Positions 12,996 through 61,113 of a stretch of DNA of 64,000 bases are shown here, in pieces. A program made the translations under genes and the position numbers. The stretch's first letter is position 1. Every line of letters begins with the position of its first letter. The notes beneath the pieces were generated by a model. That model did no database searches. It was not told the DNA's origin and saw only the letters and a list, made by a program, of their open reading frames with translations. The stretch spans positions 37,018-101,017 of the forward strand of contig JAEUSU010000004.1 of the NCBI GenBank assembly GCA_016788635.1. The letters run 5' to 3'. This DNA comes from Flavobacteriales bacterium. Its GTDB lineage: Bacteria > Bacteroidota > Bacteroidia > Flavobacteriales_F > PHOS-HE28.

Positions 12996-13358
12996 ATGAG
13001 AACCTTGACCTTGGTTTTGCTGGCCGCGCTGATGAGCAGCCCGGTGGCTGCTGCCCCTGCGGATGATATTAATGCCGTGTTCTCCTCATATGATGCGCAC
13101 GTGGTCATGCACATCGCGCTGTTCGATGAAGCAGCACTGGAACGGCTTACCCGGGAGGTGGGAAGGTCGAAGGATGTGACCTTGGAATACAGCTGCGTGT
13201 GGTCCGGCATCGTGGTGTTCAAGTGCACGGGTATTCCCGTTGGTGAGCGCGCGGATGTGATCACCTATGTGCGGCGGATCCTCACCTCGGCTGGCATCGA
13301 TCGCGGAGTGGAGTTCCTCAAGGTGCATGTGGAGCCTGCGGGCCCTGGAAAATGCTGA
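12996..13358 (+). CDS. Small secreted hypothetical protein (~120 aa)
   Basis: Signal peptide MRTLTLVLLAALMSSPVAAAP; start chosen at ATG 12996 inside the longer ORF-track ORF. Confidence 0.45.
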   Translation: MRTLTLVLLAALMSSPVAAAPADDINAVFSSYDAHVVMHIALFDEAALERLTREVGRSKDVTLEYSCVWSGIVVFKCTGIPVGERADVITYVRRILTSAGIDRGVEFLKVHVEPAGPGKC

Positions 13359-16725: not shown

Positions 16726-17077
16726 CCTTGTGAACATTCGGCGAGTTTTCCACCACTTGCGCGAGCCGGGCCCTGAGGACTTACATTCGTACCAGCATCG
16801 TTCATTGCCAATCCGCCTCAGGGCTCAACGCAAGGCCCACGCAGGTAGAGATGTTCGGGGAACCAACAGCATTCCATCAGGGAAAGCACTTCCAATGGGC
16901 AACGGCGGGCCTCATCCACGACCTGGTCGCGGATCCCTTCGGGGACAAGAGGATTACGGACCCCATGCGCGCTTTCCCGCTCATGTGAACCATGGGTTTC
17001 TTTGAACTCGACCCTGCGTGGGCTTTTTTTGTTCCGTGAGCAACACCTCTGCCTTTTCGGCCACAAAGCTTCCGGTG

Positions 17078-17659
17078 ATGGAGCACTTCCATACCGTGCA
17101 AGGCGAAGGGGCCTTCAGCGGGCAGGCCGCCTTTTTCATCCGCCTCGGCGGCTGTGACGTGGGCTGCACCTGGTGCGATGTGAAGGAAAGTTGGGAGATG
17201 GACGAACACCCCCGGCTTGGTGTGGATGCCCTGGTGGCGGAAGCCTTGCAGCGCCCCGCGCGCATCGCGGTGGTAACTGGTGGCGAGCCGCTGATGCATG
17301 ACCTCACCACCCTGACCAACGCCTTGCGCGAGGCCGGTTTTCGCACCCATTTGGAGACCTCAGGCACGCATCCCATCACCGGCACCTGGGACTGGGTCTG
17401 CCTTTCGCCCAAAAAGTTCAAGGCCCCGTTGGAAGGCATGCACCTTGTGGCCCATGAATTGAAAGTGATCGTGTTCAACAAGCACGATCTGCAATGGGCG
17501 GAGGAACACGCGGCACGGATGAAGAAGGGCAGCCTGCTCTTCCTGCAACCGGAATGGGGGAAGCGGGAGGCCATGATGCCCCTGATCGTCGAACACGTGC
17601 AGGGGAACACCCGATGGCGCATTTCGATCCAGACACACAAGTACATGGGCATACCATGA
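17078..17659 (+). CDS. queE: 7-carboxy-7-deazaguanine synthase (radical SAM), queuosine pathway
   Basis: MEHFHTVQGEG N-terminus, CDVGCTWC radical-SAM cysteine triad, ~195 aa length. Confidence 0.85.
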   Translation: MEHFHTVQGEGAFSGQAAFFIRLGGCDVGCTWCDVKESWEMDEHPRLGVDALVAEALQRPARIAVVTGGEPLMHDLTTLTNALREAGFRTHLETSGTHPITGTWDWVCLSPKKFKAPLEGMHLVAHELKVIVFNKHDLQWAEEHAARMKKGSLLFLQPEWGKREAMMPLIVEHVQGNTRWRISIQTHKYMGIP

Positions 17660-25198: not shown

Positions 25199-25296
25199 GG
25201 GTCATTTTGGCGGCTAGGACACGGTGCCATGATCGATGGTCACAGTATGCGCAAATTCGAACGTGGCGTGCCACGCGCCGTAGTGAATAGTCTGCC

Positions 25297-25746
25297 ATGC
25301 CCCCCAAGCGCATCTTTCTCGACGCCAATGTGCTGGTGACGGTGCTCTGCAACGAGTACCCGCGCTTCAGCGCCTGCGCCCGTGTGTTGAGCCTGGCGGA
25401 CGATCCGCGTTTCACGGCCCACACTTCGCCGCTCTGCCTGGCCATCGGGGCCTATTTCGCAGAGAAGAAGAACGGCGGCAAGGTGGCACGCCGCAAGATC
25501 GCTCTGCTTGCCCAGAAGCTGGCCGTTACCACAGTTGGCCCGCATGCCGTGGAACGCACACTGGCCGATGTACGCATAGTGGATATCGAGGACGGTTTCC
25601 AGTACCATTCGGCCATCGATTCCGGCTGTACCTGCATCATCACCCACGACAAACGCAACTGGAAGTTCGCGGAGATCGAGGTGATGGACCCCGAGGCCTT
25701 TTTGCTGAAGTACGTGGTGGGCGAGGGCCGGAGGGGGAAGAAGTGA
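25297..25746 (+). CDS. PIN-domain (VapC-like) type II toxin
   Basis: N-terminal IFLDANVLV with conserved acidic residue, ~150 aa, follows the small antitoxin-like gene. Confidence 0.7.
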   Translation: MPPKRIFLDANVLVTVLCNEYPRFSACARVLSLADDPRFTAHTSPLCLAIGAYFAEKKNGGKVARRKIALLAQKLAVTTVGPHAVERTLADVRIVDIEDGFQYHSAIDSGCTCIITHDKRNWKFAEIEVMDPEAFLLKYVVGEGRRGKK

Positions 25747-25927
25747 CTCCAGCGCGCGAGCCTGTTCAAAACTTTTCCTGACGAAAAACTTGGCGGACCC
25801 GTCTCCGTGATGCTTAATTGTCCGTCGAAAAGTTGACGGAATATCCGTCAGCCGGTGGGGCCGGGCCCACCGACATGGAACGAACAACGAAGCAAACACG
25901 CGCCGGCGGCGCACAACACGAAGCGAA

Positions 25928-26944
25928 ATGGCCACGGAGATCAACAAGGAGAAGCTGAAGGCCCTTCAGCTGACGATGGATAAGATGGAGAAGACCTTCG
26001 GGAAAGGTGCCATCATGAAACTGGGGGATGATGTGGTGGAACAGACGGAGGTGATCCCCACGGGATCCATCGGTGTAGACCTAGCCTTGGGCGTGGGCGG
26101 CTTCCCCAAGGGCCGCGTGGTGGAGATCTATGGACCGGAGTCATCCGGCAAGACCACCCTGGCCATCCATGCCATTGCCGAATGTCAGAAACGCGGGGGC
26201 ATCGCCGCCATCATCGATGCAGAGCATGCCTTCGACCGGTTCTATGCCGAAGCACTGGGAGTGGACACCGAGAACCTGCTGATCAGCCAGCCGGACAACG
26301 GCGAACAGGCGCTGGAGATCGCCGACAACCTGATCCGCTCGGGCGCCATCGACATCCTGGTGATCGACAGTGTGGCGGCGCTTACGCCGCGTGCCGAGAT
26401 CGAGGGCGAGATGGGCGACAGCGCCGTGGGCATGCAGGCCCGCCTGATGAGCAAGGCCTTGCGCAAGCTCACGGGCACCATCAGCAAGACGGGCTGCTGC
26501 TGCATCTTCATCAACCAGCTGCGCGAGAAGATCGGTGTGATGTTCGGTAACCCCGAGACCACCACCGGCGGCAACGCACTGAAGTTCTATGCCAGCATCC
26601 GCATCGACATCCGCCGCACCAATCAGATCAAAGAGGGCGAGAACGTGATCGGCAACCGCACCAAGGTGAAGGTGGTGAAGAACAAGCTGGCCCCGCCCTT
26701 CCGCAAGGCCGAGTTCGACATCCTCTTTGGTAAAGGCGTGAGCAAGTCCGGCGAGATCATCGACATGGGCGTGGAGATGGGCATCATCAAGAAGAGCGGC
26801 AGCTGGTTCGCCTATGCGGACAACAAGCTGGGGCAGGGTCGTGATGCCGTGCGCCAGTTGCTGGAGGACAACCCGGAGCTCAGCGAGGAGCTCGAGAACC
26901 GCATCAAGGAGGTCCTCGGCAAGACAGAGCAACAGCCTGCCTGA
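25928..26944 (+). CDS. recA: Recombinase A
   Basis: [11 protein letters not shown] Walker [10 protein letters not shown]1/L2 loops, ~338 aa. Confidence 0.97.
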
Positions 26945-28166: not shown

Positions 28167-28208
28167 GAAGCCCCGTCCCGATGATCCGGGACGGGGCTTC
28201 TTCTTTTG
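28167..28208. terminator. Bidirectional intrinsic terminator between the convergent TPR and universal-stress-protein genes
   Basis: Perfect 14-bp stem GAAGCCCCGTCCCG-atgatc-CGGGACGGGGCTTC followed by TTCTTTTG. Confidence 0.75.
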
Positions 28209-28246
28209 AACCCTTCAAAAGAGTTCGAAGGACCCTGCTCGCGCGG

Positions 28247-29026
28247 TCAAACGCACAGCACGGGGATCCCCGGTTCGTTGGTCAGCAGGCGTTCCTTCTC
28301 GGCATCGGCGATCCAGCGGTACTCATCGCTGGCATGTGCCATGATGGCGATGCAGGCCGCACCGGCCCTGGCAGCATGCGCGATGGTCTGCATGGCAAAG
28401 CCGACGCTGAAACCCTGCATCGGTTCGTTCACCTCTTCATGCCGGATGCCTTCCTCCTGCAAACGATACAGCGCTTTGCGCTTGTTCTCCAGCAACTGGT
28501 CGCTGGGCGACTCGCCGGGCCGCATGATCTGATACACCTGCACGGAATTACCGCCCAGGCGCGCCAACATGCATACCGCATCAAGCAGGGGTGCGGTGTT
28601 GGCATGGCCGGATACGGGCATCACAAGGGGACCGTTGCCGAAGGCGGTAGTTGAATGCTCCTGCACCACCATCGATGGCACGGCGGAACGGCGGATCAGC
28701 TTCAGGATGTCCGCACCGAGCAGCGTTTGCCGCAAACCGCGTGCGCCATGGGTGCCACACACCAGCAGAGCATGCCCGCGTGCGCTCTCCAGGCCGATCT
28801 CCTCCAGGAAGTCGCCGTTGCGCAGCAGGGTGCGCATGGGGGCCTGGCCATTGGTGCGGCTGCGGAAGGCTTCCAGCGCGGCGGCGGCATCCTCGCTTTC
28901 CTCCTTCCGGTCGGTCACGTGCAACAGGGTCACTTCACCACCTGTGCGGCGGGCCAGGTCGCTGGCCAGGTCAGCGGCCACCAGGGCGGCTCCGCTCAGG
29001 TCTACAGGGCACAGCAGGTCGTTCAT
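28247..29026 (-). CDS. Universal stress protein (tandem UspA domains)
   Basis: UspA-like ATP-binding pattern (VMPVSGHANT..., C-terminal GSV/ARAGA... block). Start at MNDLL (ATG 29026). Confidence 0.75.
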   Translation of the reverse strand: MNDLLCPVDLSGAALVAADLASDLARRTGGEVTLLHVTDRKEESEDAAAALEAFRSRTNGQAPMRTLLRNGDFLEEIGLESARGHALLVCGTHGARGLRQTLLGADILKLIRRSAVPSMVVQEHSTTAFGNGPLVMPVSGHANTAPLLDAVCMLARLGGNSVQVYQIMRPGESPSDQLLENKRKALYRLQEEGIRHEEVNEPMQGFSVGFAMQTIAHAARAGAACIAIMAHASDEYRWIADAEKERLLTNEPGIPVLCV

Positions 29027-39262: not shown

Positions 39263-39459
39263 GCGTCCGCAAAGGTAGCTGGGGACGTGGGGCCACGCGG
39301 CCGATCAGCCGGTCCACATAGAGGAGGAGGGTCGCCAGGTCCGGTGTATGGTACGGTGGAAGCCGCTTGCTATCTTGCTCCGGTCAGTAATGCCCGTACG
39401 ACGTGCATTTGCGCAAGCCGTACGACCGACAACGAACAACCGACAACTTCCACTCCCGC

Positions 39460-42156
39460 ATGAGGATCCTCGACCTGAAAGCCATGCGCGGCCCGAACCA
39501 CTGGTCCGTGCGCCGCCACAACCTCATCATCATGCGGCTGGACATCGGTGAGTTGGAGGAGCGCCCCACCGACAAGATCCCCGGTTTCCTGGACCGCATG
39601 AAGGCCCTGATGCCCTCCCTGCACAGCCACCGCTGCAGCGAAGGGCACGCCGGCGGTTTTTACGAACGGGTGGAGCGTGGCACCTGGATGGGCCACGTGA
39701 TCGAGCATTTCGCTTTGGAGATCCAGACCCTGGCTGGCATGGAGACCGGTTTCGGGCGCACCCGCAGCACCAGCGAACGCGGTGTGTACAACGTGGTCTT
39801 CAGCTACATCGAGGAGCCCGTGGGCCTCTATGCGGCCAAGGCGGCGGTACGCATAGCCGAATCGCTCATCGAAGGCAGGGAGGTGGATCTGGCAGCGGAC
39901 CTCCAGGCCATGCGCGAACTGCGCGAGGACAGCCGCCTGGGCCCCAGCACCGGCAGCATCGTGCAGGAGGCCGCAGCGCGCGGCATTCCCTACTTGCGCC
40001 TCAACGGCCAGAGCCTCGTGCAACTGGGCCATGGCATACACCAGAAACGCATCCGCGCCACCATCACCAGCCGCACCAGCAACATCGGGGTGGAGATCGC
40101 CTGCGACAAGGAGGAGACCAAGCAGCTGTTGGAGAGTTACGAGATCCCCGTGCCCAAGGGCCGTGTGGTGCGCACCGAGGAAGGGCTCATGGACGCGCTC
40201 AGCGTGGTGGGTTTCCCCTGCGTCATCAAACCCATCGGCGGCAACCATGGGCGCGGCGCCACCATCGGCATCAAAACGAAGGATGAGGCCATTGCGGCCC
40301 TGGCCAAGGCCAAGGAGATCAGCCGCAGCGTGATCGTGGAGCGCTACATCACCGGCCTGGACCACCGCCTGCTCGTCATCGACCACCAGTTCGTGGCCGC
40401 CGCCAAGCGCACCCCCGCCTGCGTGATCGGCGATGGCAAGCGCAGCATCCGCGCGCTCGTGGAGGAGGTGAACACCGACCCCCGCCGTGGTTACGGCCAT
40501 GAAAAGGTCCTCACCCGCATTGACATTGACGACCATACGGAGAAGCTGCTCGCCCGCCGCGACATGACGCCCGACAGCGTGCCGCCGAAGGACGAGGTGG
40601 TGTACCTGAAGGCCACGGCCAACCTCAGCACCGGTGGCACCGCCACCGACGTCACGGAGGTCGTGCACCCCTACAACGTCTTCATGGCCGAGCGCATCTC
40701 GCGCATCATCGACCTGGACATCTGCGGCATCGACATCATGACCGATGACATCACGCAGCCGCTTACCGAGACCGGTGGTGCCGTGCTGGAGGTGAACGCC
40801 GCGCCCGGCTTCCGCATGCACCTGGAGCCCACCGAGGGCATCGGGCGCAACGTGGCCGAACCCGTGGTGGACATGCTCTTCCCGCCCGGCGCGCCCAGCC
40901 GCATCCCCATCATCGCCGTCACCGGCACCAACGGAAAGACGACCACCACGCGCCTCACCGCGCACATCATGCGCAGCGTCAACTTCAAGGTGGGCATGAC
41001 CTGCAGTGATGGTGTGTACATCATGAACCGCATGCTGATGAAGGGCGACTGCACCGGCCCGGCCAGCGCGCAGTTCGTGCTGAAGGACCCGCTTGTGGAC
41101 ATGGCCGTGCTGGAGACCGCACGCGGCGGCATGCTGCGCAGTGGCCTCGGCTTCGAGCATTGCGACGTGGGCATCTGCACCAACGTGGCCGCCGACCACC
41201 TCGGCCTCAAGGACATCAACACCCTGGAGGAACTTGCACATGTGAAGAGCACCGTGCCCCGCAGCGTGCGCAAGGACGGCTACGCCATCCTCAACGCCGA
41301 CGATGACCTGGTTATGGCCATGCGCAAACAGTGCGATTGCAGGATCGCCCTTTTCAGCCTCGACGAGAACAACCGCCTCATCCGCCAGCACTGCAAGCTC
41401 GGCGGCCTCGCGGCCATCTATGAGAATGGCTTCATCACCATCAGCAAGGGCGAGTGGAAGCTGCGCATCGAGAAGGCGGTGAACGTGCCGCTCACTTACG
41501 GAGGCAAAGCGGTTTTCAATATCCAGAACATCCTGCCCGCCGTGCTGGCCGCCTACACCCAGGGTGTGAAGATCGAGGAGCTCCGCCAGGCGCTGATGAC
41601 CTTCGTGCCCTCACCGGCGCAAACGCCCGGCCGCCTCAACCTCTTCCAGTTCCGCAACTTCCAGGTGGTGGTGGACTATGCCCACAACCCGCATGGCTTC
41701 GAGGCCTTGGGCCGTTTCCTCAGCAAGGTTCCCGACACACCCAAGATCGGCGTCATCGCCGGCGTGGGCGACCGCCGCGACGAGGACACCGTGAACCTCG
41801 GCAAGCTCAGTGCCCGCATGTTCGACGAGATCATCATCCGCCAGGATCGCAACCTGCGCGGCAAGACCGACGACGAGATCATCGCGCTGCTGGTGAAGGG
41901 CATCCAGGAGGTGGACCCCAACAAGCCCTTCAAGATCATGAAGAAGGAGGACGAGGCCATCCGCCACGCCATCGGCACCGCGCCGAAAGGTGCCTTTGTG
42001 GTGCTCTGCAGCGATGTGGTGCCCGATGCCTTGGCGCTTGTCCTGAAGTTGAAGGAGGAGGATGAGCAGGTCAGCTTCAACAAGGAGGATATCCCGAATA
42101 GGAATAAGGAGTTGGTGGGAAGGGCAGAAGTGCCGGTGGAAGGGCATGGGCAGTGA
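39460..42156 (+). CDS. cphA: Cyanophycin synthetase
   Basis: N-terminal cyanophycin-synthetase domain (MRILDLKAMRGPNHWS...), central ATP-grasp, C-terminal Mur-ligase-like domain (VTGTNGKTTTT). Start at ATG 39460. Confidence 0.9.
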   Translation: MRILDLKAMRGPNHWSVRRHNLIIMRLDIGELEERPTDKIPGFLDRMKALMPSLHSHRCSEGHAGGFYERVERGTWMGHVIEHFALEIQTLAGMETGFGRTRSTSERGVYNVVFSYIEEPVGLYAAKAAVRIAESLIEGREVDLAADLQAMRELREDSRLGPSTGSIVQEAAARGIPYLRLNGQSLVQLGHGIHQKRIRATITSRTSNIGVEIACDKEETKQLLESYEIPVPKGRVVRTEEGLMDALSVVGFPCVIKPIGGNHGRGATIGIKTKDEAIAALAKAKEISRSVIVERYITGLDHRLLVIDHQFVAAAKRTPACVIGDGKRSIRALVEEVNTDPRRGYGHEKVLTRIDIDDHTEKLLARRDMTPDSVPPKDEVVYLKATANLSTGGTATDVTEVVHPYNVFMAERISRIIDLDICGIDIMTDDITQPLTETGGAVLEVNAAPGFRMHLEPTEGIGRNVAEPVVDMLFPPGAPSRIPIIAVTGTNGKTTTTRLTAHIMRSVNFKVGMTCSDGVYIMNRMLMKGDCTGPASAQFVLKDPLVDMAVLETARGGMLRSGLGFEHCDVGICTNVAADHLGLKDINTLEELAHVKSTVPRSVRKDGYAILNADDDLVMAMRKQCDCRIALFSLDENNRLIRQHCKLGGLAAIYENGFITISKGEWKLRIEKAVNVPLTYGGKAVFNIQNILPAVLAAYTQGVKIEELRQALMTFVPSPAQTPGRLNLFQFRNFQVVVDYAHNPHGFEALGRFLSKVPDTPKIGVIAGVGDRRDEDTVNLGKLSARMFDEIIIRQDRNLRGKTDDEIIALLVKGIQEVDPNKPFKIMKKEDEAIRHAIGTAPKGAFVVLCSDVVPDALALVLKLKEEDEQVSFNKEDIPNRNKELVGRAEVPVEGHGQ

Positions 42157-42197: not shown

Positions 42198-43055
42198 TCA
42201 GCGTGCGCTACCCATCCACCGGAACCCATCCATCACGGCTTGGTGCATGATGGTCGCATGGTCGAGTTGCGGCAGGTAGCCGAAACCCACACGGATGCGC
42301 TCGTCCTTCCGGAGCATGGCGACAAGGCGACGCGCCTGGCCTTCCATCACGGAACCTTCCCGGCCCACTGCGATGTAGACATGGCTGGGCACCGTGTCGG
42401 AATTCAGGGTGCCTGTGGGATGTCCTTTCAGCAAGGAGCCATTATCCCACCACAGGCTGGGGCTGATGATCAAATAGCGGGTGAATAGCCTGGGCTGTGT
42501 GAACATTGCTTCAATTGCAAGGAGCCCACCGAGCGATTGACCAATGAGCATACGCTCGCCGTCGGTATGGTACATGGAATCGATGTACGGCATCAGTTCA
42601 TCGGACAGAAAATGAAGAAAGGCTGCGGATCCACCGGTGGTGGGGTAGTCTGCCTTGTCCTTGGCTATGGAGGTGGGATAGGTGAAGTCGCGCTTGCGGT
42701 CCACATTCGCGATGCCCACCACGATGCTGGGCGGAAGCCAGCCCACCCACGGCATACTGGCGAACTGCACCAGGCCACCCAGGTGGAAGATGTCCTCGTC
42801 AGCAGCGCCATCGAGCACATAGATCACAGGGTAGCGTGCCGCACTGTCAGGCGAATACCCATCGGGCATCAGAATGTTCAACTTGCGGTCCTCGGCGAGT
42901 ATGGCGGAATGGAGCGTACGCGTCTCACCCCACACGAAGGGGACCGATGCAGGATCCTGTGCAGAAAGCGAGATCGTCAGCAGGGCAGGCAAGAATGGCG
43001 CGCACCACCAGCTTGGATCTTGGAAGGAGTTGATCACAGTAGCTGGGTTCCGCAA
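42198..43055 (-). CDS. Alpha/beta-hydrolase 'putative esterase' family protein
   Basis: GQSLGG nucleophile elbow and esterase-family length; convergent with cphA. Confidence 0.65.
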   Translation of the reverse strand: MRNPATVINSFQDPSWWCAPFLPALLTISLSAQDPASVPFVWGETRTLHSAILAEDRKLNILMPDGYSPDSAARYPVIYVLDGAADEDIFHLGGLVQFASMPWVGWLPPSIVVGIANVDRKRDFTYPTSIAKDKADYPTTGGSAAFLHFLSDELMPYIDSMYHTDGERMLIGQSLGGLLAIEAMFTQPRLFTRYLIISPSLWWDNGSLLKGHPTGTLNSDTVPSHVYIAVGREGSVMEGQARRLVAMLRKDERIRVGFGYLPQLDHATIMHQAVMDGFRWMGSAR

Positions 43056-43092: not shown

Positions 43093-43872
43093 TCACTCCC
43101 CCGTGTACACCGGCTTCCGCTTCTCCAGGAACGCCTGCACCCCCTCGTTGTAATCGTGGCTGCGGCCGGCGAGGGTTTGCAGCTCGTTCTCGTGGTCCAA
43201 CTGGGTATCGAGGCTTGTGTTCTGCGCGCGGTTCAACGCCTCCTTGGTGAGGGCGATCGCCTTGGTGGGCATGGTGGCCAGCTTCTTCGCGAGGGCGGTG
43301 GCCTCGTTCATTAGTTCAGCGTCGGGCACGGCCTTCCAGATCATGCCTTGGGCCTCGGCTTCCTTGGCGCTCACCTTCGGGGCCAGGATCATTTGGCCGA
43401 AGGCGCATTGCATGCCTACCAAGCGCGGCAGGGTGTAGGTGCCGCCACTGTCGGGGATCAGGCCGATGTGGATGAAGCTCTGGATGAAGTTGGCGCTCTC
43501 GGCCGCCAGCGTGAGGTCGCAGGCGTAGGCGATGTTGGCCCCGGCCCCGGCCGCCACGCCGTTCACCGCGCACACCACCGGCTTGGGCAGGTTGCGGATG
43601 CGCCGCACGATGGGGTTGTACTGCTTCGTCAGGATCTCCTCGATCTGGGAGCCCGGCGCGATGGCCTCAGCCAGGTCCTGTCCGGCGCTGAAGGCCCGCC
43701 CTTCGCCGGTGAACAGCAAGGCCCGCACGCTGGTGTCGTTCTTCGCCTTGTCCAGCGCATCGATCACTTCCAATGACATCTCGCGGTCGAAGCTGTTCAG
43801 CTTGTCCGGACGGTTCAGGGAAAGGGTGGCCACGCCATCGACGATGGTGAAGAGGATCTTGGTGTAGGGCAT
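43093..43872 (-). CDS. paaG: Enoyl-CoA hydratase/isomerase (crotonase fold); likely PaaG-type isomerase of the phenylacetate pathway
   Basis: Crotonase motifs (FTGEGRAFSAGQDL, NGVAAGAGANIAYACD) and co-orientation at the distal end of the paaABC(D) cluster. Confidence 0.75.
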   Translation of the reverse strand: MPYTKILFTIVDGVATLSLNRPDKLNSFDREMSLEVIDALDKAKNDTSVRALLFTGEGRAFSAGQDLAEAIAPGSQIEEILTKQYNPIVRRIRNLPKPVVCAVNGVAAGAGANIAYACDLTLAAESANFIQSFIHIGLIPDSGGTYTLPRLVGMQCAFGQMILAPKVSAKEAEAQGMIWKAVPDAELMNEATALAKKLATMPTKAIALTKEALNRAQNTSLDTQLDHENELQTLAGRSHDYNEGVQAFLEKRKPVYTGE

Positions 43873-43876
43873 GGGG

Positions 43877-44092
43877 TCAAAGTTCTGTCTTGTCGATACC
43901 GGCTTGCCGAAGGATGCCTATCAGTGTGCCTTTCGGAAGGTCGCCCCTGTGCATGGGTACTACTGTCATTTTGCCGTTCGAACGGTTCTTGAAGATCCGG
44001 TGGGAGCCCTTGGCGCGGACGTACTCAAAGCCGTGTGCCTCCAAGACACGGATCAACTCGGCGGCTGTCATCGTGGGCGACTTCGCCATCAC
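43877..44092 (-). CDS. hicA: HicA-family mRNA-interferase toxin
   Basis: 71 aa; AAELIRVLEAHGFEYVRAKGSHRIF...TVVPMH..DLPKGTLIGILRQAGI matches the YcfA/HicA consensus. Confidence 0.8.
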   Translation of the reverse strand: MMAKSPTMTAAELIRVLEAHGFEYVRAKGSHRIFKNRSNGKMTVVPMHRGDLPKGTLIGILRQAGIDKTEL

Positions 44093-44316
44093 GAAGCGAG
44101 CACAAGGGAATACTCGAAAGTCTTGCTGTCATCCGGGACCGGATCGCCCTCGGCTTCCAAGGTCTCCACGTACAGTTCGATGGCTTCCTTCGCCATGGCC
44201 AGCGCATGGTCGATGTTCTCGCCGTAGGTGATGCATCCCGGAAGCGCCGGGACCATCACAGTAAATCCGCCTTCAGGTTCCTGAGTGAGCAGGATGCGAT
44301 AGGTGCGTTGGGACAT
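44089..44316 (-). CDS. hicB: HicB-family antitoxin
   Basis: 75 aa; RILLTQEPEGGFTVMVPALPGCITYGENIDHALAMAKEAIELYVE (UPF0150/HicB fold); 4-bp overlap with hicA. Start at ATG 44316. Confidence 0.75.
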   Translation of the reverse strand: MSQRTYRILLTQEPEGGFTVMVPALPGCITYGENIDHALAMAKEAIELYVETLEAEGDPVPDDSKTFEYSLVLAS

Positions 44317-44335
44317 GGTTGCAAGATACTGAGCC

Positions 44336-44827
44336 TCACAAGCACTTGAACTGATCGAATGGCTCCAGGCAATCCTGGCACTTCCATAGCGCCTTGCAGG
44401 CCGTGCTGCCGAAGAGTGATAGCAGCACCGTGTTCGTGGAACCGCACTGCGGACAGGCCACCACCGGTTGCTCGCCTTTGAGCGCACGGATATCAGCGGT
44501 CTTCTCCGGCGGGGCGATGCCGTATTGCTTCAGCTTGCGTTTGCCCTCGTCGGTGATCCAATCGGTGGTCCAGGCAGGGGAGAGGCTCAGCCTCACTTCC
44601 ACCGCGGGCACGCCGGCCTCCAGCAGTTCCTTCTTGATGTCGGCCGCCATCACGTCCATGGCCGGGCAGCCGGTGTAGGTGGGGGTGATGGTGACGATGG
44701 CCTTGCCGCTCTCCTCCACCTCCACGCCGCGCACCACGCCAAGCTCCAGCACGTTGATGGCCGGGATCTCCGGGTCCTTAACGTAGTCGAGGAGCTCGAG
44801 AATGCGGTGTTTGGTGGGGGTGGGCAT
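44336..44827 (-). CDS. paaD: Phenylacetate-CoA oxygenase subunit PaaD
   Basis: DUF59/MIP18-like domain (PEIPAINVLELGVVRGVEV…ITPTYTGCPAMD) plus C-terminal Cys-rich finger (CPQCGS…CQDC). Confidence 0.8.
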   Translation of the reverse strand: MPTPTKHRILELLDYVKDPEIPAINVLELGVVRGVEVEESGKAIVTITPTYTGCPAMDVMAADIKKELLEAGVPAVEVRLSLSPAWTTDWITDEGKRKLKQYGIAPPEKTADIRALKGEQPVVACPQCGSTNTVLLSLFGSTACKALWKCQDCLEPFDQFKCL

Positions 44828-44869
44828 CTCGTGGGGTAAGCGAACATAGAGGCCAATGCGCCAACCAGC

Positions 44870-45238
44870 TTAGTAGTCCTCCATCGTTGATTGAAATTCT
44901 GTGGAGCTCAACACCTCGGTCACGCGATTTCCACCTTCCACATAGTTCTCGCGTGATCGGATCGTATCCCCGTTCGCGAGTATCGCTGTCAGGCCGTAGG
45001 TATTCTCACCCGGACTGAGAAACGAGGTGGATGCCTGTCCGTTCGCTTCAATAGGGCCGAAGGACTCCTTCCCACGTTCGTGCGATAAGATCAAGGTGGA
45101 GATGATTTGGTCATTCCGATTGACCACTTTGATGCAGACGTGCTCCAGGGATCGTGGGCACTCAGCGTATGGAGACGAACAACCGACGAATACGGTGCAA
45201 AGCGCAATTACCGTTAGGAGTCTTGTCAATCGCTCCAT
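44870..45238 (-). CDS. Small hypothetical lipoprotein (122 aa), low-GC insert within the paa operon
   Basis: Lipobox TVFVGCSS; GC content (~50%) clearly lower than flanking paa genes (~65%). Confidence 0.5.
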   Translation of the reverse strand: MERLTRLLTVIALCTVFVGCSSPYAECPRSLEHVCIKVVNRNDQIISTLILSHERGKESFGPIEANGQASTSFLSPGENTYGLTAILANGDTIRSRENYVEGGNRVTEVLSSTEFQSTMEDY

Positions 45239-45256
45239 GGATGGATCCGCGTTGCG

Positions 45257-46039
45257 TTACCATTCCACCCCCGGAAACGCCCGTGTCACATGCTGCATCT
45301 CCGCCAGGATGAAACCCATGTGCTCGCTGTGCAGGCCCTTGCGGCCGCCTGTCATCATGAAGGCATCAGCGGGGCGCTTCAACGTGGCTTCGGAAAGCAC
45401 CTGGTCCATGGTCTTGCTCCAGGCTTCCCTGATGGCGGCGATGTCCGGTGCGATGCCCGCCTTGGTCATCTCCTCCAGAACAGCATCGCTCTCGAAGAGC
45501 TCGCCAGTGTATGTCCACAGGTTGTCGAGGGCGGCTTGGGCACGTTGGTGGCTCTCCTCGGTGCCATCGCCGAAGCGGATCAGCCATTCGCTGCTGTGGC
45601 GCAAGTGGTAGGTGGCCTCCTTCACGCTCTTGCCCGCGATGGCGGCCAGTTGTGCATCGCTGCTCTTGGTCAGGGCCTGCATCAGCGGCAGGTGGTAGGC
45701 ATCGAAGAGGAAGCTGCGCACGATGGTGTGGGCGTAGTCGCCGTTGGGCTGCTCCACTAGTTTCACGTTGGTGAACTGCCGCTCCAAGCGCAGGTAGGCC
45801 AGGTCGTCCTCGGAACGCGGGCCCGCCGTAGCCTTGGCGGAGGCGGGGCCTTTCCCTTCCACCTGCCCGGCATAGGTGAGCAGGTTGCGGGCCTCGCCAA
45901 GGTGGTCCAGCGCGCGGTTGGTGAGGGCGATGTCCTCCTCCAGCACGGGGCCGTGGCCGCACCATTCACCCAGGCGTTGGCTCAGGATGAGGAGGTCGTC
46001 CGCCAACCGCAGTGTGTATGTAAAAAGTGCGTTGCTCAT
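45257..46039 (-). CDS. paaC: Phenylacetate-CoA oxygenase subunit PaaC
   Basis: PaaC/PaaI collinearity (MSNALFTYTLRLADDLLILSQRLGEWCGHGP…). Start at ATG 46039. Confidence 0.85.
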   Translation of the reverse strand: MSNALFTYTLRLADDLLILSQRLGEWCGHGPVLEEDIALTNRALDHLGEARNLLTYAGQVEGKGPASAKATAGPRSEDDLAYLRLERQFTNVKLVEQPNGDYAHTIVRSFLFDAYHLPLMQALTKSSDAQLAAIAGKSVKEATYHLRHSSEWLIRFGDGTEESHQRAQAALDNLWTYTGELFESDAVLEEMTKAGIAPDIAAIREAWSKTMDQVLSEATLKRPADAFMMTGGRKGLHSEHMGFILAEMQHVTRAFPGVEW

Positions 46040-46049
46040 TTCAAGCGCA

Positions 46050-46122
46050 GGTTGGGGGTTGGAGGTTGGTGGGTTGGGGGTTGAGGGCCAACCCTCAACC
46101 ATCGTCAACCTTCAACCATCAA
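46050..46122. repeat. Intergenic heptamer tandem repeat (GGTTGGR x5) immediately followed by its inverted copy (CCAACCY x~4), forming a ~73-bp imperfect palindrome between paaB and paaC
   Basis: Read directly: GTTGGGGGTTGGAGGTTGGTGGGTTGGGGGTTGAGGG-CCAA-CCCTCAACCATCGTCAACCTTCAACCATCAA; central perfect 8-bp stem GTTGAGGG/CCCTCAAC. Confidence 0.7.
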
Positions 46123-46125
46123 TGA

Positions 46126-46419
46126 TCAGATGTATTTCGCCCCCTCAGGCATGGTGTAGAACGTTGGGTGCCTGTAGACCTTGTCATCCGCTGGGTCGTA
46201 GAAGCTCTCCGCGTCCTCGGGGCGGCTGGCGTGGATATGCTCGGCCTTTACCACCCAGATGCTGTTGCCTTCCTGGCGGCGGGTGTACACATCACGGGCG
46301 TTCTCGATGGCCATCTCGGCATCGGCGGCGTGCAGGCTGCCCACGTGCTTGTGGTCGAGCCCGCGCTTGCTCTGGATGAACACTTCCCAGAGGGGCCAGT
46401 TGTTGGGGTTGTCGCTCAT
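46126..46419 (-). CDS. paaB: Phenylacetate-CoA oxygenase subunit PaaB
   Basis: 97 aa; conserved PaaB sequence (WPLWEVFIQSKRGL…HVGSLHAAD…). Confidence 0.9.
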   Translation of the reverse strand: MSDNPNNWPLWEVFIQSKRGLDHKHVGSLHAADAEMAIENARDVYTRRQEGNSIWVVKAEHIHASRPEDAESFYDPADDKVYRHPTFYTMPEGAKYI

Positions 46420-46504: not shown

Positions 46505-47455
46505 TCATGCTGCTTGCTTGCGTTTCGCCTTCTTGGCGGCGTAGGCCACGGCTGCTTCGCGCACCCAGGCGCCATTGTTATGCGCCTTGTTGCGTGCTGC
46601 GAGCCGTTCCTTGTTGCAGGGGCCATTGCCGGCCACCACATTGTTGAACTCGGTCCAGTCGATGGTGCCCCAGTCGTAGTGCTTGGTCTCCGCGTTCCAC
46701 TTCAGGTCGGGATCGGGGATCGTGAGGCCGATCACTTCGGCCTGCTGCACGGTGCGGTCGATGAAGGTCTGGCGCAGTTCATCATTGCTCTGGCGCTTGA
46801 TCTTCCACTTCATGCTCTGTGCGCTGTGCGGGCTGTTGGCGTCTGTGGGGCCGAACATCATCAAGCTGGGCCACCACCAGCGGTTCAGGGCGTCCTGCGC
46901 CATTTCCTTCTGCGCGGGACTTCCCTTTGCCAGCACGGCCATGATCTCGTAACCCTGTCGCTGGTGGAAGCTCTCCTCCTTGCAGATGCGCACCATGGCG
47001 CGGGCGTAAGGGCCATAGCTGGTGCGGCACAGCATCACCTGGTTCATGATGGCGGCACCGTCCACCAACCATCCGATGGCACCGATATCCGCCCAGGTGA
47101 GGGTGGGGTAGTTGAAGATGCTGCTGTACTTGGCCTTGCCGCTCAACAGGTCGTCGATGGTCTGTTCCCGGCTGGTGCCCATGGTCTCCACTGCGCTGTA
47201 GAGGTAGAGTCCGTGCCCGGCCTCATCCTGCACTTTGGCCAGCAGGATGGCCTTTCGTTTCAAGCTGGGCGCACGGGTGATCCAGTTGCCCTCGGGCAGC
47301 ATGCCCACCACTTCGCTGTGCGCGTGCTGGCTGATCTGGCGCACCAAGGTCCTGCGGTAGGCGTCCGGCATCCAGTCCTTCGGCTCGATCTTTAGTTCGG
47401 CGTCGATCTTGGCTTGGAAGAGCTCCTCCAGGTTCTTCACGTCGGTCATGGACAT
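46505..47455 (-). CDS. paaA: Phenylacetate-CoA oxygenase catalytic subunit PaaA
   Basis: Di-iron ferritin-like motifs ([10 protein letters not shown]…, EESFHQRQG) and PaaA length. Confidence 0.92.
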
Positions 47456-47609: not shown

Positions 47610-48707
47610 ATGACGACCCCACGCATGGCCCGCTTCCATACCCTCGAGGTTGCCGATGTCACTCCAGAAACGAAGGATGCGATCTCCGTGGGGCTGAAGG
47701 TCCCACCCGCCCTGCGCGAGGAGTTCAAGTTCATCCACGGCCAGTACCTGACACTGAAGTTGAAGGTGAAAGGGGAGGAGCTGCGCCGCAGCTACAGCAT
47801 CTGCAGCAGCCCATTCGAGCCGGAAGTGATCCGCATTGCGGTGAAGCAGGTGCCCGGCGGCCGGGCCAGCACGTTCCTGGTGGAGCATCTCAAACCGGGA
47901 GACCGGCTGGAGGTGATGACGCCCATGGGGAATTTCTACACCCTATGTGACCCCAGTCACGAACGGCACTATGTGGCTTTCGCGGCTGGCAGCGGCATCA
48001 CGCCCATCCTCAGCATTCTGATGACCGTGCTTCGAAGCGAGCCCAAGAGCCGTTTTACGCTGTTCTATGGCAATACGGACACGGACCGCATCATCTTCCG
48101 CAGCAAGCTGGAGGAGTTAAAGGTGCACTATGGTGGCCGGCTGGATGTGATGCACATCCTGAGCCGGGGGAAGGATGAGGACATGCTCTTTAACGGAAGG
48201 ATCACTGCGGAAAAGGCGGTGGAGCTGGTCAAACGCTTCGTGTCCGACCGGAATGACAATGAGTACTTCATCTGTGGCCCGGAACAGATGATGGTGAACG
48301 TGAGCGAAGCTTTGGAGAACCTTGGGGTGGGGAAGAAGCGGATCCATGTGGAACTCTTCACTTCACCGGTGACCAGCGCCGCCCCCAAAGCGGAACAGAC
48401 CACCTCTGCGAACGGCTTCAGTGGCCTTTCCAACGTGATGGTGATCTTGGACGGCCGTGAGTTCGAAATGCAGGTTCCGGGTAAAGGAGATGCCATCCTG
48501 GATGCGGCCATCGAAGCCGGCCTGGACGTGCCTTTCGCCTGCAAGGGGGCGGTGTGCTGCACCTGCAAGGCCCGCATTACCGAGGGCAAGGTGGAGATGG
48601 CCATGAACTATGCCCTGACCGATGAGGAGGTGGCCGATGGCTACGTGCTCACCTGCCAGGCCCACCCACGCACGGACCGTGTTGTGGTGGATTACGACCA
48701 GCATTAA
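47610..48707 (+). CDS. paaE: Phenylacetate-CoA oxygenase reductase subunit PaaE (FNR-like + 2Fe-2S ferredoxin)
   Basis: FAD/NAD-binding RSYSICS and GSGITP motifs; C-terminal CKGAVCCTC…C 2Fe-2S cluster; divergent from paaA (alternative start ATG 47625). Confidence 0.88.
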   Translation: MTTPRMARFHTLEVADVTPETKDAISVGLKVPPALREEFKFIHGQYLTLKLKVKGEELRRSYSICSSPFEPEVIRIAVKQVPGGRASTFLVEHLKPGDRLEVMTPMGNFYTLCDPSHERHYVAFAAGSGITPILSILMTVLRSEPKSRFTLFYGNTDTDRIIFRSKLEELKVHYGGRLDVMHILSRGKDEDMLFNGRITAEKAVELVKRFVSDRNDNEYFICGPEQMMVNVSEALENLGVGKKRIHVELFTSPVTSAAPKAEQTTSANGFSGLSNVMVILDGREFEMQVPGKGDAILDAAIEAGLDVPFACKGAVCCTCKARITEGKVEMAMNYALTDEEVADGYVLTCQAHPRTDRVVVDYDQH

Positions 48708-48760: not shown

Positions 48761-49273
48761 TCAGGGCCGTGCCTGAACAAGGCTGCCTTGACGGGCGCGG
48801 ATGTGGGTGGCGTAGACCGGGCTGGGCGCGTGCCCGCCGAATTCGGTGCTGTAGCGAATGATGGCGTTGGGGAAATCCTCGAAGAAGGGGTCTCCACCGG
48901 TGAGCGCGTTCTCCGGCTCCAGGTCCACCTGGCAGGGGAAGGCCGGATAACGGCCCACTTCCACAGGTACGTTGGTATCCACCAGGATGAGCTTGCTCTT
49001 GTAACCCGGTTTGCTGATCAGGAGCGCGTATTGGGTGCCCATATCCAGTTCCACTTGGAACCGGCCCTTTTGAATGGCGAAGGACGTGAGCTCGGTATTG
49101 TCCTTGAACACCTTCACCGTGATGTCGGTGGGCTTGGTGCGGCCATTGTCCACTTTCACCCGGCCATCCACGGGCATCACTGGCTTGGCAGGGCCCTTCT
49201 TGCCCTGTGCGCTAACGGTGGCCAGGAGGGCACCGATGAGGCTGAGGAACAGGAATGTGCGACGGAAGTTCAT
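48761..49273 (-). CDS. Secreted hypothetical protein with a carboxypeptidase-regulatory-like (transthyretin-like) beta-sandwich signature
   Basis: Signal peptide MNFRRTFLFLSLIGALLATVSAQ; DGRVKV…VKVF…GRFQVEL…YALLISKPGYKSK pattern. Confidence 0.45.
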   Translation of the reverse strand: MNFRRTFLFLSLIGALLATVSAQGKKGPAKPVMPVDGRVKVDNGRTKPTDITVKVFKDNTELTSFAIQKGRFQVELDMGTQYALLISKPGYKSKLILVDTNVPVEVGRYPAFPCQVDLEPENALTGGDPFFEDFPNAIIRYSTEFGGHAPSPVYATHIRARQGSLVQARP

Positions 49274-58651: not shown

Positions 58652-60445
58652 CTATCTATTAAACTGAAGAGCGAAGGTGCTTCGGTTGCCACGTTCGTCC
58701 GTGACCTCCAGCTTGAATTGGCGCTGTCCGGTCCCCTCGCTGTAGCGGTCGAAGTGGTGGACAAGGGTCTTGTTCTTCGGGTCGTACTCCATCAAGACCC
58801 ACTTCCCATCCAGCGTGGCGGTCCATTTGTCCACCCCGCTCAGGTCATCCGTCACCTTCAGGGTGAATGAACGCCTTCCTTTCATGTCCACACGCAGGTC
58901 CACGTTGGCGATCTTGGGTGCTACGGTATCCACCATCAGGGTGAAGCCGCCGAAAGCCTTGGCCTTGGCCGAGACCCAGCCATTGGCATGGGTGCTGGGC
59001 AGGGCGTTCGGCTTGTTCTTGTGATCGTACCGCACCACCACGGTCTTTCCGATCAGCGCGGCAGACAAGCTATCCGGCCGGATAGATACCTCGCAGGGTA
59101 CGCGGATGGGCACGGAGGTGCTCATGATGCGGTGCAGGGGGGCCACCGCCTTGGGTGGTCGCACTGCCTTTGCATACTGTATCGGCGCATCCTCGAACAG
59201 GGCCCCGGCCGGCACCACGCACTTCACACCCATCTGGCTGAATTGGTTCTCGCGGTCCCAGGCCATGCGGTTGCTGGCGGTGTCCCGCCTGGTCCAGTGC
59301 CGTGCTTTATCCCAAGCCACACCTTTCAGTGTGAAGGCCACCACCGAACGATTGCCGGCCGCATCAATGGCCGTTATGCGGACCTTCCGTTCCGCGCCGG
59401 GGGCCACGGTGATGCGCCCTTGGGCGGGTTCGTTGCCATAGATGCGCAGCTTGTTGTTGGGCAGCTTGTACAAGCGGTGGTAATGCAGGTCGCTGTCCTT
59501 GTGCAGCGCGTAGTCCATGTGAGCGTTCACGTAGCGTTGCAGGTCGAAGTCCACCTCGCTCAGGTCCACGCTGAAGGCTGGTGCGGAATCCACTTCCAGT
59601 TCGATCCGGCGCACGCCGCACGAATTGCTGGAGCCGTCATACCGGTCGATCACGTTCAGGGCAAGGCCGATGGTGCCGAAGACTTCGATAGCACCTTGAT
59701 GTTTCAGGTGGTATCGCCCGCCTGCGCCCTCTGCTCCATACCCCATGGCCTGGCCCGGATAAGGAGCAGTGCGGCTGCTATCGCCCAAAGAATAGGTGCG
59801 GATGCCGCGGATCTCCGGCGGGATGCCGTCGATCAAAGGAAGCCCATGGGCCTGGGGGTCAAGCGCGTGCTGGTCGCGGGTGCGGCGCACTTCGAAATGC
59901 AGGTGGGGAGCGGAAGAGCCACCCGTATTACCGCTCAGGCCGAGTATATCACCGCGCTTTACCGGAACCTCCGCCGGGCCCAGTTCCAGGTCCACTGAAA
60001 AGTCGCGCCGTTTGTACTGGGCATCCAATACCACGTCGGCCAAAGCGCCTTTCAGTTCCTTGAGGTGCGCGTAAACGGTGGTGGTGCCGTCCGGGTGCTG
60101 CACGTACACTGCCTTGCCGTAGCCCCAGGGGCTGATCTTTACGCGGGCCACGAAGCCATCGGCCACCGTGCGCACGGGCAATCCTTCCACACCCTGGGTC
60201 TTGAAGTCGATGCCCGAGTGGAAATGGTCCGACCGAAGCTCCATGAAATTGCCGGACACCAGGAGCGGGATGTCCAATGGCGGCAGCAGGGCGCCGGACG
60301 GCGCTTGTGATCGGGCGCTCAGGCAGAGGAACGATGGGCCGGCGAGCAGGGAAAGAAGGGCATATCTCACGAAGGGCAAACTTGGACGCCCCGGGCTTGG
60401 CGAGGGAACGCGTGGAGCGGAGGGTGTCAACACAGCAGGGTTCAA
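58652..60445 (-). CDS. M23/LytM-family metalloendopeptidase. The probable true start is GTG at 60370, which gives signal peptide MRYALLSLLAGPSFLCLSA.
   Basis: HFHSGIDF and HLHFEV zinc-ligand motifs; long beta-rich C-terminal extension. Confidence 0.8.
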   Translation of the reverse strand: MNPAVLTPSAPRVPSPSPGRPSLPFVRYALLSLLAGPSFLCLSARSQAPSGALLPPLDIPLLVSGNFMELRSDHFHSGIDFKTQGVEGLPVRTVADGFVARVKISPWGYGKAVYVQHPDGTTTVYAHLKELKGALADVVLDAQYKRRDFSVDLELGPAEVPVKRGDILGLSGNTGGSSAPHLHFEVRRTRDQHALDPQAHGLPLIDGIPPEIRGIRTYSLGDSSRTAPYPGQAMGYGAEGAGGRYHLKHQGAIEVFGTIGLALNVIDRYDGSSNSCGVRRIELEVDSAPAFSVDLSEVDFDLQRYVNAHMDYALHKDSDLHYHRLYKLPNNKLRIYGNEPAQGRITVAPGAERKVRITAIDAAGNRSVVAFTLKGVAWDKARHWTRRDTASNRMAWDRENQFSQMGVKCVVPAGALFEDAPIQYAKAVRPPKAVAPLHRIMSTSVPIRVPCEVSIRPDSLSAALIGKTVVVRYDHKNKPNALPSTHANGWVSAKAKAFGGFTLMVDTVAPKIANVDLRVDMKGRRSFTLKVTDDLSGVDKWTATLDGKWVLMEYDPKNKTLVHHFDRYSEGTGQRQFKLEVTDERGNRSTFALQFNR

Positions 60446-60481
60446 ACAAGTACCGGGCCTGAATGAACGGGTGGGTTAACT

Positions 60482-60808
60482 TTGGCGGTGGACTTGGAAC
60501 GGACTGCCGTGAACAGAACCATGGAAACACCCGCACAACGTTTGCGCCAGCTGGCCGGGCGTGTGGAGCAGGTCCTGCGGGAGCGGGACATGCTGCGCGC
60601 CCAGACAGGCCGGATGGAGCAACAGCTGCGCGACGAGCGGCAGACAGCCGCCGTGCTGCGTGCCCGGGTGGAGGAACTGGAGCGGGAGAACGAAGTCCTT
60701 CGCAGTGCCCGGCCATCGACAAGTGGCCCGGGGAATGGTGGAACGATCGCACGCATCGATGACCTGGTGGTCGAGATCGATCGCTGCCTGGCCTTATTGG
60801 AAGCCTGA
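60482..60808 (+). CDS. Coiled-coil protein upstream of zapA (ZapB-like cell-division factor candidate)
   Basis: Heptad-rich (LRERDMLRAQTGRMEQQLRDER…VEELERENEVLR); position immediately upstream of zapA. Start may be ATG 60521. Confidence 0.5.
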   Translation: MAVDLERTAVNRTMETPAQRLRQLAGRVEQVLRERDMLRAQTGRMEQQLRDERQTAAVLRARVEELERENEVLRSARPSTSGPGNGGTIARIDDLVVEIDRCLALLEA

Positions 60809-60819
60809 AGCAACGAACG

Positions 60820-61113
60820 ATGAACGACCACGACGAACTGTCCATCCGTGTGGAGATCGCCGGACGAGCCTATCCGCTCACCGTGGCGCGTCATGAGGAA
60901 CCCCTCGTGCAGCGCACCGCCCAGGAGATCAACGAGAGCATTGCCCGCCTTCGGTCCAACTACCCGTTGACCGACAAGCTGGACCTGCTGGCCATGGCCG
61001 CTTTGGAAGTGGCCTCGCGTGCCAATATCGGGGCGGAGCGCCGCACCGATACCGAACTGCTCGCCGCGTTGGAAGAGCTATCGGCCCTGCTCCCGTCCAC
61101 CGCCGGATCCTGA
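60820..61113 (+). CDS. zapA: Cell division protein ZapA
   Basis: 97 aa; V.I.G..Y.L.…EE…A..…N..…L.…R…D…LAALNLA-type ZapA pattern; followed by rny as in many genomes. Confidence 0.75.
   Translation: MNDHDELSIRVEIAGRAYPLTVARHEEPLVQRTAQEINESIARLRSNYPLTDKLDLLAMAALEVASRANIGAERRTDTELLAALEELSALLPSTAGS

Follow-up and report, generated by a model that had tools for sequence, protein, structure and literature searches.

Why do a toxin-antitoxin gene pair and a gene for a small predicted lipoprotein lie inside an operon for the catabolism of phenylacetate? The question is raised by a 64,000-nucleotide (nt) stretch of DNA from a Flavobacteriales bacterium (GenBank assembly GCA_016788635.1, contig JAEUSU010000004.1, positions 37,018 to 101,017; subsequently designated the window), in which the phenylacetyl-CoA oxygenase (paa) operon carries a 122-amino-acid (aa) open reading frame (ORF) between paaC and paaD and a hicB-hicA pair (hicBA) between paaD and paaG. 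A previous sequence-only reading of the window regarded both as acquired inserts and proposed that the HicA toxin could couple phenylacetate catabolism to growth arrest. The explanation that accounts best for the data, and which we consider probable, is that the two junctions flanking paaD are hot spots for small accessory genes, hicBA being an old resident and the lipoprotein gene a young arrival.

Two inserts within the paa operon

Genes were identified by ORF listing in combination with Pfam and NCBIfam profiles. On the minus strand they follow the order paaA-paaB-paaC-lipoprotein gene-paaD-hicB-hicA-paaG, which confirms the twofold interruption described before. paaA (46505-47455) and paaB (46126-46419) were assigned through Pfam matches. 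paaC (45257-46102), encoding phenylacetyl-CoA epoxidase subunit C, likewise has a Pfam match and scores 294.6 bits with TIGR02158 (cut-off 133). paaD (44336-44827), encoding 1,2-phenylacetyl-CoA epoxidase subunit D, is intact (TIGR02159, 193 bits vs. a cut-off of 108; PF01883 and PF23451). The last gene (43093-43872) encodes a PaaG-like enoyl-CoA isomerase of the crotonase family, whose 336.5 bits with the PaaG profile TIGR02280 are marginally below the cut-off of 345. paaE (47610-48707; TIGR02160, above cut-off) is divergent from the paaA-paaG block and clusters with paaA, paaB, paaC and paaD, as expected for a paa operon.

The inserts, i.e. the lipoprotein ORF (44870-45238), hicB (44089-44316, 75 aa) and hicA (43877-44089, 70 aa), share the orientation of the operon and are tightly packed into it. 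The lipoprotein ATG follows the paaC stop codon after 18 nt and the paaD ATG follows the lipoprotein stop after 42 nt, while 19 nt separate the paaD stop from the hicB ATG and 4 nt the hicA stop from the paaG ATG. All three genes have a lower G+C (GC) content than their surroundings. The paa genes have 61.6-64.5% GC, with a GC content at third codon positions (GC3) of 0.82-0.91, and the entire window has 62.3%. hicB and hicA reach 57.9% and 56.8%, respectively, corresponding to roughly the 5th percentile of the window (GC3 0.71-0.72). The lipoprotein ORF has only 52.3% (GC3 0.62), which is the minimum among all 369-nt windows of the 64 kb. The contrast of about 50% to about 65% GC stated previously for this gene was thus right in direction and slightly overstated in size. 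Taken together, low GC content and co-orientation inside the oxygenase operon bear out the view that the inserts are acquired accessory DNA.

The same arrangement recurs, with proteins of 100% amino-acid identity, on metagenome contigs that stem independently from six sequencing runs, and no contig carried the same PaaC or PaaG without the inserts. An assembly artefact was therefore rejected, as identical proteins recur in the same order in six independent samples.

The junctions on both sides of paaD as probable insertion hot spots

Species-representative genomes were scanned for PaaD, which yielded 80 loci (designated by L-numbers in the following). Of these, 33 form a close clade with PaaD proteins 76-96% identical; they belong to uncultured high-GC Flavobacteriales known from metagenome-assembled genomes (MAGs), many of them from activated sludge. 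Together with the window this gives 34 genomes, in which the junctions of the paa genes were inspected for inserts of at least 300 nt. None was found at paaA/paaB (0/27 genomes) or at paaB/paaC (0/30). In contrast, 11 of 32 genomes carry an insert at paaC/paaD and 12 of 21 at paaD/paaG, a highly significant difference between the paaD-flanking junctions and the two others combined (0/57; Fisher p = 2e-9). Both junctions flanking paaD are hence insertion hot spots for small accessory genes in this lineage.

The cargo is diverse. At paaC/paaD, pairs encoding MNT and HEPN proteins were found in L012, L013, L022 (frameshifted), L026, L027 and L030, and a stump of such a pair in L039. Further cargo at this junction comprises a KilA-N protein gene in L028, and an OmpA gene of 35% GC in L026. 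The window, L008, L011, L014 and L035 have unrelated orphan ORFs at this site. At paaD/paaG, hicBA is present in the window, L018, L028 and L029, and PIN-DUF6364 pairs encoded on the opposite strand in L013, L014 and L021. DUF5063 genes occupy this junction in L018, L019, L020 and L010, and their remnants were detected in the apparently empty spacers of L016 and L025. The rest of the cargo is composed of orphan ORFs, a block of three genes and an OmpA-like gene. Three toxin-antitoxin families, namely HicBA, MNT-HEPN and PIN-DUF6364, are thus represented, and 12 of the 34 genomes carry a toxin-antitoxin module at one or the other paaD junction. Every cassette has a lower GC content than the adjacent paaD, by 2-8 points for toxin-antitoxin modules and by 9-12 points for singleton orphan ORFs.

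Two of these sites deserve separate mention. The OmpA-domain gene of L026 (4158-4970, 270 aa) lies beside the MNT-HEPN pair and has 35% GC in a genome of 64%; it was apparently acquired very recently, from a donor of low GC content. The paaD-paaG spacers of L016 (6478-6566) and L025 (6481-6585), approximately 90-105 nt in length, show homology to the initial codons of the DUF5063 genes in L018 and L020 (GATCAGATGATCGG... repeats) and therefore appear to be deletion remnants rather than ancestral empty sites. Truly short spacers between paaD and paaG measure 13 nt (L031) and 30 nt (L026, L027), that of L036 78 nt.

Insertion is not restricted to the close clade. In more distant Flavobacteriia, genes for 23S_rRNA_IVP, PDDEXK_3 and ORF6N proteins reside at paa junctions (L057, L069, L041, L045, L040, L049), and an Aequorivita MAG carries an AbiEii nucleotidyltransferase toxin gene with an upstream partner gene between paaD and paaG (L066, 4965-6451). 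Small selfish genes in the paa operon therefore represent a wider habit of the group, and the assessment that a toxin-antitoxin module in this catabolic operon is unusual does not hold for the present lineage.

Could the junctions be a small anti-phage hot spot, at which hicBA, MNT-HEPN, PIN-DUF6364 and, in outgroups, AbiEii are kept for aborting infection? Families known from defence systems as well (HEPN, PIN, AbiEii, HicA, KilA-N or ORF6N) are enriched among the cargo, and turnover with replacement is typical of defence islands. However, about half of the cargo consists of secreted, lipoprotein, OmpA-like or orphan ORFs devoid of a defence signature, including the lipoprotein of the window, and no other defence genes were found nearby in the window, for which the PADLOC library was not searched. 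We regard this explanation as rather unlikely and favor hot spots that receive small accessory genes of various kinds.

hicBA is an old and patchily kept insert

When aligned with occupied sites (L018, L028, L029) and empty ones (L031, L026, L036), the hicBA cassette of the window extends over 43873-44335 on the minus strand, i.e. from the paaD stop to the paaG start. In L018, L028 and L029, hicBA likewise directly follows paaD, with HicB 89-95% and HicA 74-76% identical to the window proteins. The pair is followed by paaG in L018 and L028, and in L029 by no paaG. The modules of L018 and L028 have in common with that of the window the upstream leader GTATCTTGCA and a location a few bases past the paaD stop. 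In addition, truncated hicB remnants were found at paaD/paaG of L013, L014 and L021. hicBA is thus not strain-specific, in contrast to the lipoprotein gene, which is absent from all 33 relatives and specific to the species.

The same genes at the same position with equal GC content would have pointed to an ancestral arrangement. The position is indeed the same, but the GC content of hicBA stays below that of paaD in every carrier; hicBA is thus no native paa gene but an insert of long standing that has been retained patchily. Each of its four carriers belongs to a different subclade of the PaaABCD tree. Synonymous divergence (dS) of hicBA is saturated (~0.9 to >3), as compared to 0.34-0.57 for paaD and paaG, a pattern that argues against recent arrival and would be compatible with exchange of old alleles among lineages. 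With the three orthologues of L018, L028 and L029, the ratio of non-synonymous to synonymous divergence (dN/dS) is 0.01-0.03 for hicB and 0.06-0.11 for hicA. Both genes are thus under strong purifying selection, which demonstrates that they are maintained and says nothing about toxicity. HicB is much more conserved than HicA and the flanking enzymes, with 89-95% amino-acid identity at 75-81% nucleotide identity, and the window HicA is the outlier among the four orthologues. HicA relatives of more than 60% identity occur on none of the sequenced plasmids or phages, and no vector was identified.

The hicB remnants add an observation on decay. In L013 (2846-3612), L014 (6585-7342) and L021 (6606-7299), a VapC-like PIN gene and its DUF6364 partner lie on the opposite strand right after the truncated hicB, and hicA is gone. 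PIN-DUF6364 thus appears to have overwritten the toxin half of hicBA at the same junction in three species. Such a sequence of events, with the toxin lost before the antitoxin, is anticipated for an addiction module that is in decay or being overwritten.

Toxin-antitoxin loci stabilize chromosomal regions, and modules beside paaD might accordingly penalize deletions of the paa operon or of the adjoining variable region. Synteny between the window and its relatives is kept upstream of paaA and stops at paaG or paaD. A variable chromosomal region thus borders the hot spot and may add to its activity. This position at the edge of a conserved syntenic block and the recurrence of toxin-antitoxin modules at the site would suit a stabilizing role. 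The modules themselves, however, are readily lost or overwritten, as evident from the remnants in L013, L014, L021 and L039, and paaG is missing beside paaD in seven relatives regardless of whether a module is present. Stabilization against deletion is a very doubtful reason for the presence of hicBA. Defence and anti-deletion roles may possibly be secondary benefits to modules that come and go at these hot spots.

The lipoprotein gene as a probable young arrival

The 122-aa ORF starts with MERLTRLLTVIALCTVFVG, followed by CSS. It comprises a charged n-region and a hydrophobic helix (residues 3-16 in the structural model), and a Cys is found at position 20. The putative signal peptide would end in FVG directly ahead of this Cys, and most relatives have SC or GC at this site. 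Neither the ORF nor its family has a match in Pfam or NCBIfam. A word-index search retrieved only the ORF itself, suggesting a true orphan; this was overturned by an exhaustive HMMER search, whose 77 hits are distant relatives with a length of ~120 aa and identities of 24-46%, or of 50% over a 32-residue repeat match. The family shares the motifs N..SG, GEN.Y and Y.EGGY as well as an N-terminal hydrophobic segment, which usually ends in Cys. AlphaFold predicts a beta sandwich of nine strands (predicted local distance difference test score 89.9), for which Foldseek returned only generic immunoglobulin- or transthyretin-like beta-sandwich matches in the PDB (template-modeling score ~0.5). Because of the 77 relatives, the shared motifs and the confident model, the ORF is a real gene. 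The beta-sandwich core is also a repeat unit in giant, presumably surface-exposed proteins: P0025, P0030 and P0056 (860-2384 aa) contain 6-7 tandem matches to lipoprotein residues ~47-101.

In seven relatives with an empty site (L007, L009, L010, L015, L016, L024, L038), homology to the window ends directly after the paaC stop and restarts at about paaD codon 5. This break shows that the cassette replaces the native paaC-paaD spacer of ~97 nt together with the first ~4 codons of paaD and supplies a new paaD start (MPTP...). The stretch without counterpart in these relatives, i.e. the lipoprotein cassette plus the new start, covers 44816-45256 on the minus strand. The four lipoprotein homologues that were examined reside on contigs of 29-38% GC, in unrelated gene contexts and without a common partner gene; their low GC content fits with a low-GC donor for the window gene. 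DNA from such a donor would have overwritten the spacer and the beginning of paaD in a single lineage of the clade.

Duplicated paa fragments point to recombination anchored in paaD and paaG

Several relatives retain footprints of insertion. Truncated copies of the paaD 5' end precede different cargos in L012 (~120 nt; 5132-5290), L028 (~110 nt; 4986-5090), L022 (~66 nt; 5138-5281) and L035 (~50 nt; ~5470-5520). A copy of the paaD 3' end follows the orphan ORF of L011 (6928-6996), a copy of the paaG 5' end directly follows hicA in L028 (~6936-6975), and in L018 (~3290-3350) a paaG 5' remnant and then a paaD 3' remnant precede hicB.

The paaD 5' duplicates ahead of cassettes first brought site-specific integration into consideration, which was rejected for their differing breakpoints. 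An integron-like system, in which a recombinase acts in trans on a conserved attachment site, would be in line with the presence, at two fixed junctions, of many cassettes that comprise one or two genes and are mostly co-oriented. Yet the breakpoints of the paaD duplicates vary with the cargo (~50-120 nt), the window cassettes have no conserved flanking repeats or attC-like palindromes, apart from short matches at chance level, and no integrase gene is present near the locus in the window or in the fetched related loci. Neither a recombination site at the cassette boundaries nor a nearby integrase, the hallmarks of integron-type cassettes, was thus found, leaving this explanation a negligible probability. 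The window likewise offers no tRNA gene or Rfam family as a potential target of integration.

Homology-facilitated illegitimate recombination has been described for naturally transformable bacteria. In that process, a single homologous anchor, here paaD or paaG, is combined with an illegitimate join, and a truncated duplicate of the anchor is left beside the new DNA. Given the variable breakpoints and the lack of boundary repeats and of an integrase, the cassettes most likely move between related genomes in this manner, anchored in the conserved paa genes and independent of a dedicated integrase. The window departs from the described process in that its inserts carry no duplicates.

The window pair belongs to the HicBA family, with a short HicB

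Both small proteins pass the Pfam cut-offs of their families, in agreement with the initial assignment. HicA matches PF07927 (E 3e-20; 72.5 bits vs. a cut-off of 27) over profile positions 2-58 of 58, and its best relatives of solved structure, 1WHZ, 4C26 and 6G26, are all HicA proteins. Its KGSHRIF segment aligns with GS(H->A)HHFK of the Burkholderia HicA (4C26/6G26) and with GGHRLY of 1WHZ, which places the Gly-Ser-His motif on the catalytic His position of the solved proteins. In HicA of Streptococcus pneumoniae, this His, with Gly and Ser next to it, is the only residue whose requirement for RNase activity has been demonstrated (PMC6159526). The window hicA is thus predicted to encode a HicA-family mRNA-interferase toxin, which is probably active.

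HicB matches PF15919 (E 3e-12; 47.1 bits vs. a cut-off of 27) over profile positions 1-60 of 123 and aligns only with the N-terminal ~65 residues of solved HicB proteins of 138-148 aa (6G1N, 6U0I, 6HPB, 4P78). The aligned part covers residues ~13-66 of the latter, and therewith the partial RNase H-like domain that binds the toxin. The protein ends at residue 75, with no C-terminal domain of the ribbon-helix-helix (RHH) or helix-turn-helix (HTH) type for binding DNA. HicB proteins consisting of the toxin-binding domain only exist, as the DNA-binding domain is missing in some family members (PMC2701414). Its absence does not disqualify the protein from the family, but distinguishes the module from those that have been studied.

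The genes were initially thought to overlap by 4 bp, which relies on a GTG start of hicA at 44092. This codon is CTG in L028 and L029, while the ATG at 44089, which overlaps the hicB stop by 1 nt (TGATG), is kept in all four orthologues. An overlap of 1 nt is therefore most likely. Adjacent, co-oriented and overlapping small genes with a patchy distribution among relatives are what is expected of a type II toxin-antitoxin module.

The pair resembles studied systems, i.e. HicAB of Burkholderia pseudomallei (4C26/6G26), HicBA of S. pneumoniae (PMC6159526) and Thermus TTHA1913 (1WHZ), in that two genes overlap in their reading frames, HicA has ~70 aa and a Gly-Ser-His motif, and the N-terminal domain of HicB corresponds to the region lying over the HicA active site. 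S. pneumoniae HicBA likewise has the antitoxin gene first. In contrast, operon repression in those systems is exerted by a C-terminal RHH or HTH domain, which is missing from the 75-aa HicB of the window, and the pair is located between two catabolic genes (19-nt and 4-nt spacers) and not in a free-standing autoregulated operon. The window hicBA nonetheless falls within the HicBA family as an ordinary representative with a short HicB.

Expression of the inserts and the link to phenylacetate

No terminator-like site was detected on the minus strand between paaA and the paaG 3' end, where a terminator-like hairpin is located (43102-43087, minus strand). Because only 18-19 nt precede each insert, with no room for own terminators, the simplest reading is that hicBA and the lipoprotein gene are most probably co-transcribed with the paa operon. 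Promoter searches were uninformative: a sigma-70 scan, based on a model that does not represent Bacteroidota promoters, gave no promoter, and the region of 42-48 kb, including the part upstream of paaA, is devoid of exact matches to the Bacteroidota -7 motif TAnnTTTG.

A HicB devoid of a DNA-binding domain would leave hicBA unable to repress a promoter of its own. For this reason, and since there is almost no upstream spacer, the module probably relies on read-through from the paa promoter. The overlap of the hicB stop with the hicA start may couple translation of both genes and thereby fix the antitoxin-to-toxin ratio. HicA, a predicted ribonuclease of the double-stranded RNA-binding domain fold with an intact catalytic His, would be blocked by direct, stoichiometric binding of the single-domain HicB.

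Does this arrangement make hicBA part of phenylacetate metabolism? If the module had been domesticated, induction of the paa operon by phenylacetate would set the levels of HicA and HicB and thereby link aromatic catabolism to growth arrest or persistence. The tight co-oriented packing, the probable expression of a HicB without DNA-binding domain from the operon promoter and the strong purifying selection on hicBA are all compatible with such coupling. There is also a reported precedent for a toxin-antitoxin module controlled by a host regulon, a competence-regulated system of Haemophilus influenzae (bioRxiv 10.1101/330480). However, only 4 of 34 genomes carry hicBA at this site, whereas sister species have unrelated toxin-antitoxin families, non-toxin genes or an empty spacer of 13-30 nt there; in L029 the module follows paaD without a subsequent paaG. 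The HicA and HicB proteins show no paa-specific feature, and a literature search gave no paper tying HicA to paa genes. Coupling of catabolism to growth arrest through HicA, although mechanically conceivable, is therefore very unlikely. The association of hicBA with paa genes is thus positional and, to judge from its distribution, not functional. We rather envisage hicBA as a selfish, addictive or defensive element that is retained under purifying selection and stands outside of phenylacetate catabolism. A more specific scenario, to which we attach little probability, is that the paaD flanks constitute an intra-operon arena of competing addiction modules, in which incoming pairs such as PIN-DUF6364 would displace the toxin gene of a resident module, hicA, with only an antitoxin stump left, and the repressor-less hicBA would now depend on a substrate-induced promoter, its dosage, and with it any defence or stasis conferred, being conditional on phenylacetate.

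Genes surrounding the paa cluster

The synteny break in the window coincides with the exact end of paaG. The genes downstream of it, encoding an esterase (42198-42935), which also has a low GC3 (0.72), and a cyanophycin synthetase (39403-42156), have no counterpart beside the paa cluster of the 33 relatives. ORFs without Pfam match, of 100-235 aa, are located at 12921-13358, 13830-14249, 16877-17350 and 25240-25947, and further ones at 28206-28532, 48761-49273 and 60442-60894. The ORF at 48761-49273 (170 aa) is kept beside paaE in relatives at 34-40% identity.

Discussion

Our data suggest that small accessory genes, mostly toxin-antitoxin modules and ORFs for secreted proteins or lipoproteins, are gained, exchanged, overwritten and lost at the flanks of paaD. 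Several points weigh against this picture or parts of it. Proximity to a flexible region may account for the hot spot to a larger extent than features of paaD. As the relatives are MAGs, a few junctions could be misassembled. Both window inserts have clean boundaries without paa duplicates, so that the mode of insertion is derived from the relatives only. The paa genes are strongly biased in GC3, which could account for part of the higher dS of hicBA, and paaC or paaD may contain an internal promoter.

The paaD flanks resemble chromosomal hot spots for toxin-antitoxin and other accessory genes, such as flexible genomic islets and the cassettes of chromosomal integrons: the position is fixed while the cassettes vary between relatives, toxin-antitoxin modules are over-represented, cassettes have a lower GC content, and gain, loss and replacement recur. 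They differ in that they lie inside an operon, on both sides of paaD, that integrase and attC-like sites are lacking, and that their footprints are fragments duplicated from flanking genes with variable breakpoints. Similarity also exists to small intergenic 'hitch-hiker' genes of Bacteroidota, which encode the four-helix-bundle protein of 23S rRNA intervening sequences (PF05635), GxxExxY/PDDEXK_3 (PF13366) or ORF6N (PF10543) proteins. As single, co-oriented genes within the operon, these are found at paaB/paaC, paaC/paaD and paaD/paaG of more distant Flavobacteriia. The window and the close clade have none of these families and carry toxin-antitoxin pairs and orphan secreted proteins at the equivalent sites. 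A literature search for toxin-antitoxin modules in paa or other catabolic operons, or for their illegitimate recombination, returned nothing directly relevant.

While the HicBA pair itself is routine, the comparative picture is potentially useful. In an uncultured lineage that is common in both fresh water and activated sludge, cargo from three toxin-antitoxin families and orphan secreted proteins have repeatedly been gained, replaced and lost through decay at two junctions of a conserved catabolic operon. The footprints suggest that cassettes without an integrase may spread by recombination anchored in the adjoining core genes. The locus could thus offer a compact natural system for the expression of repressor-less toxin-antitoxin modules, for polarity on host operons and for the displacement of one module by another, and it cautions annotators not to derive a function of toxin-antitoxin genes from their operon context.

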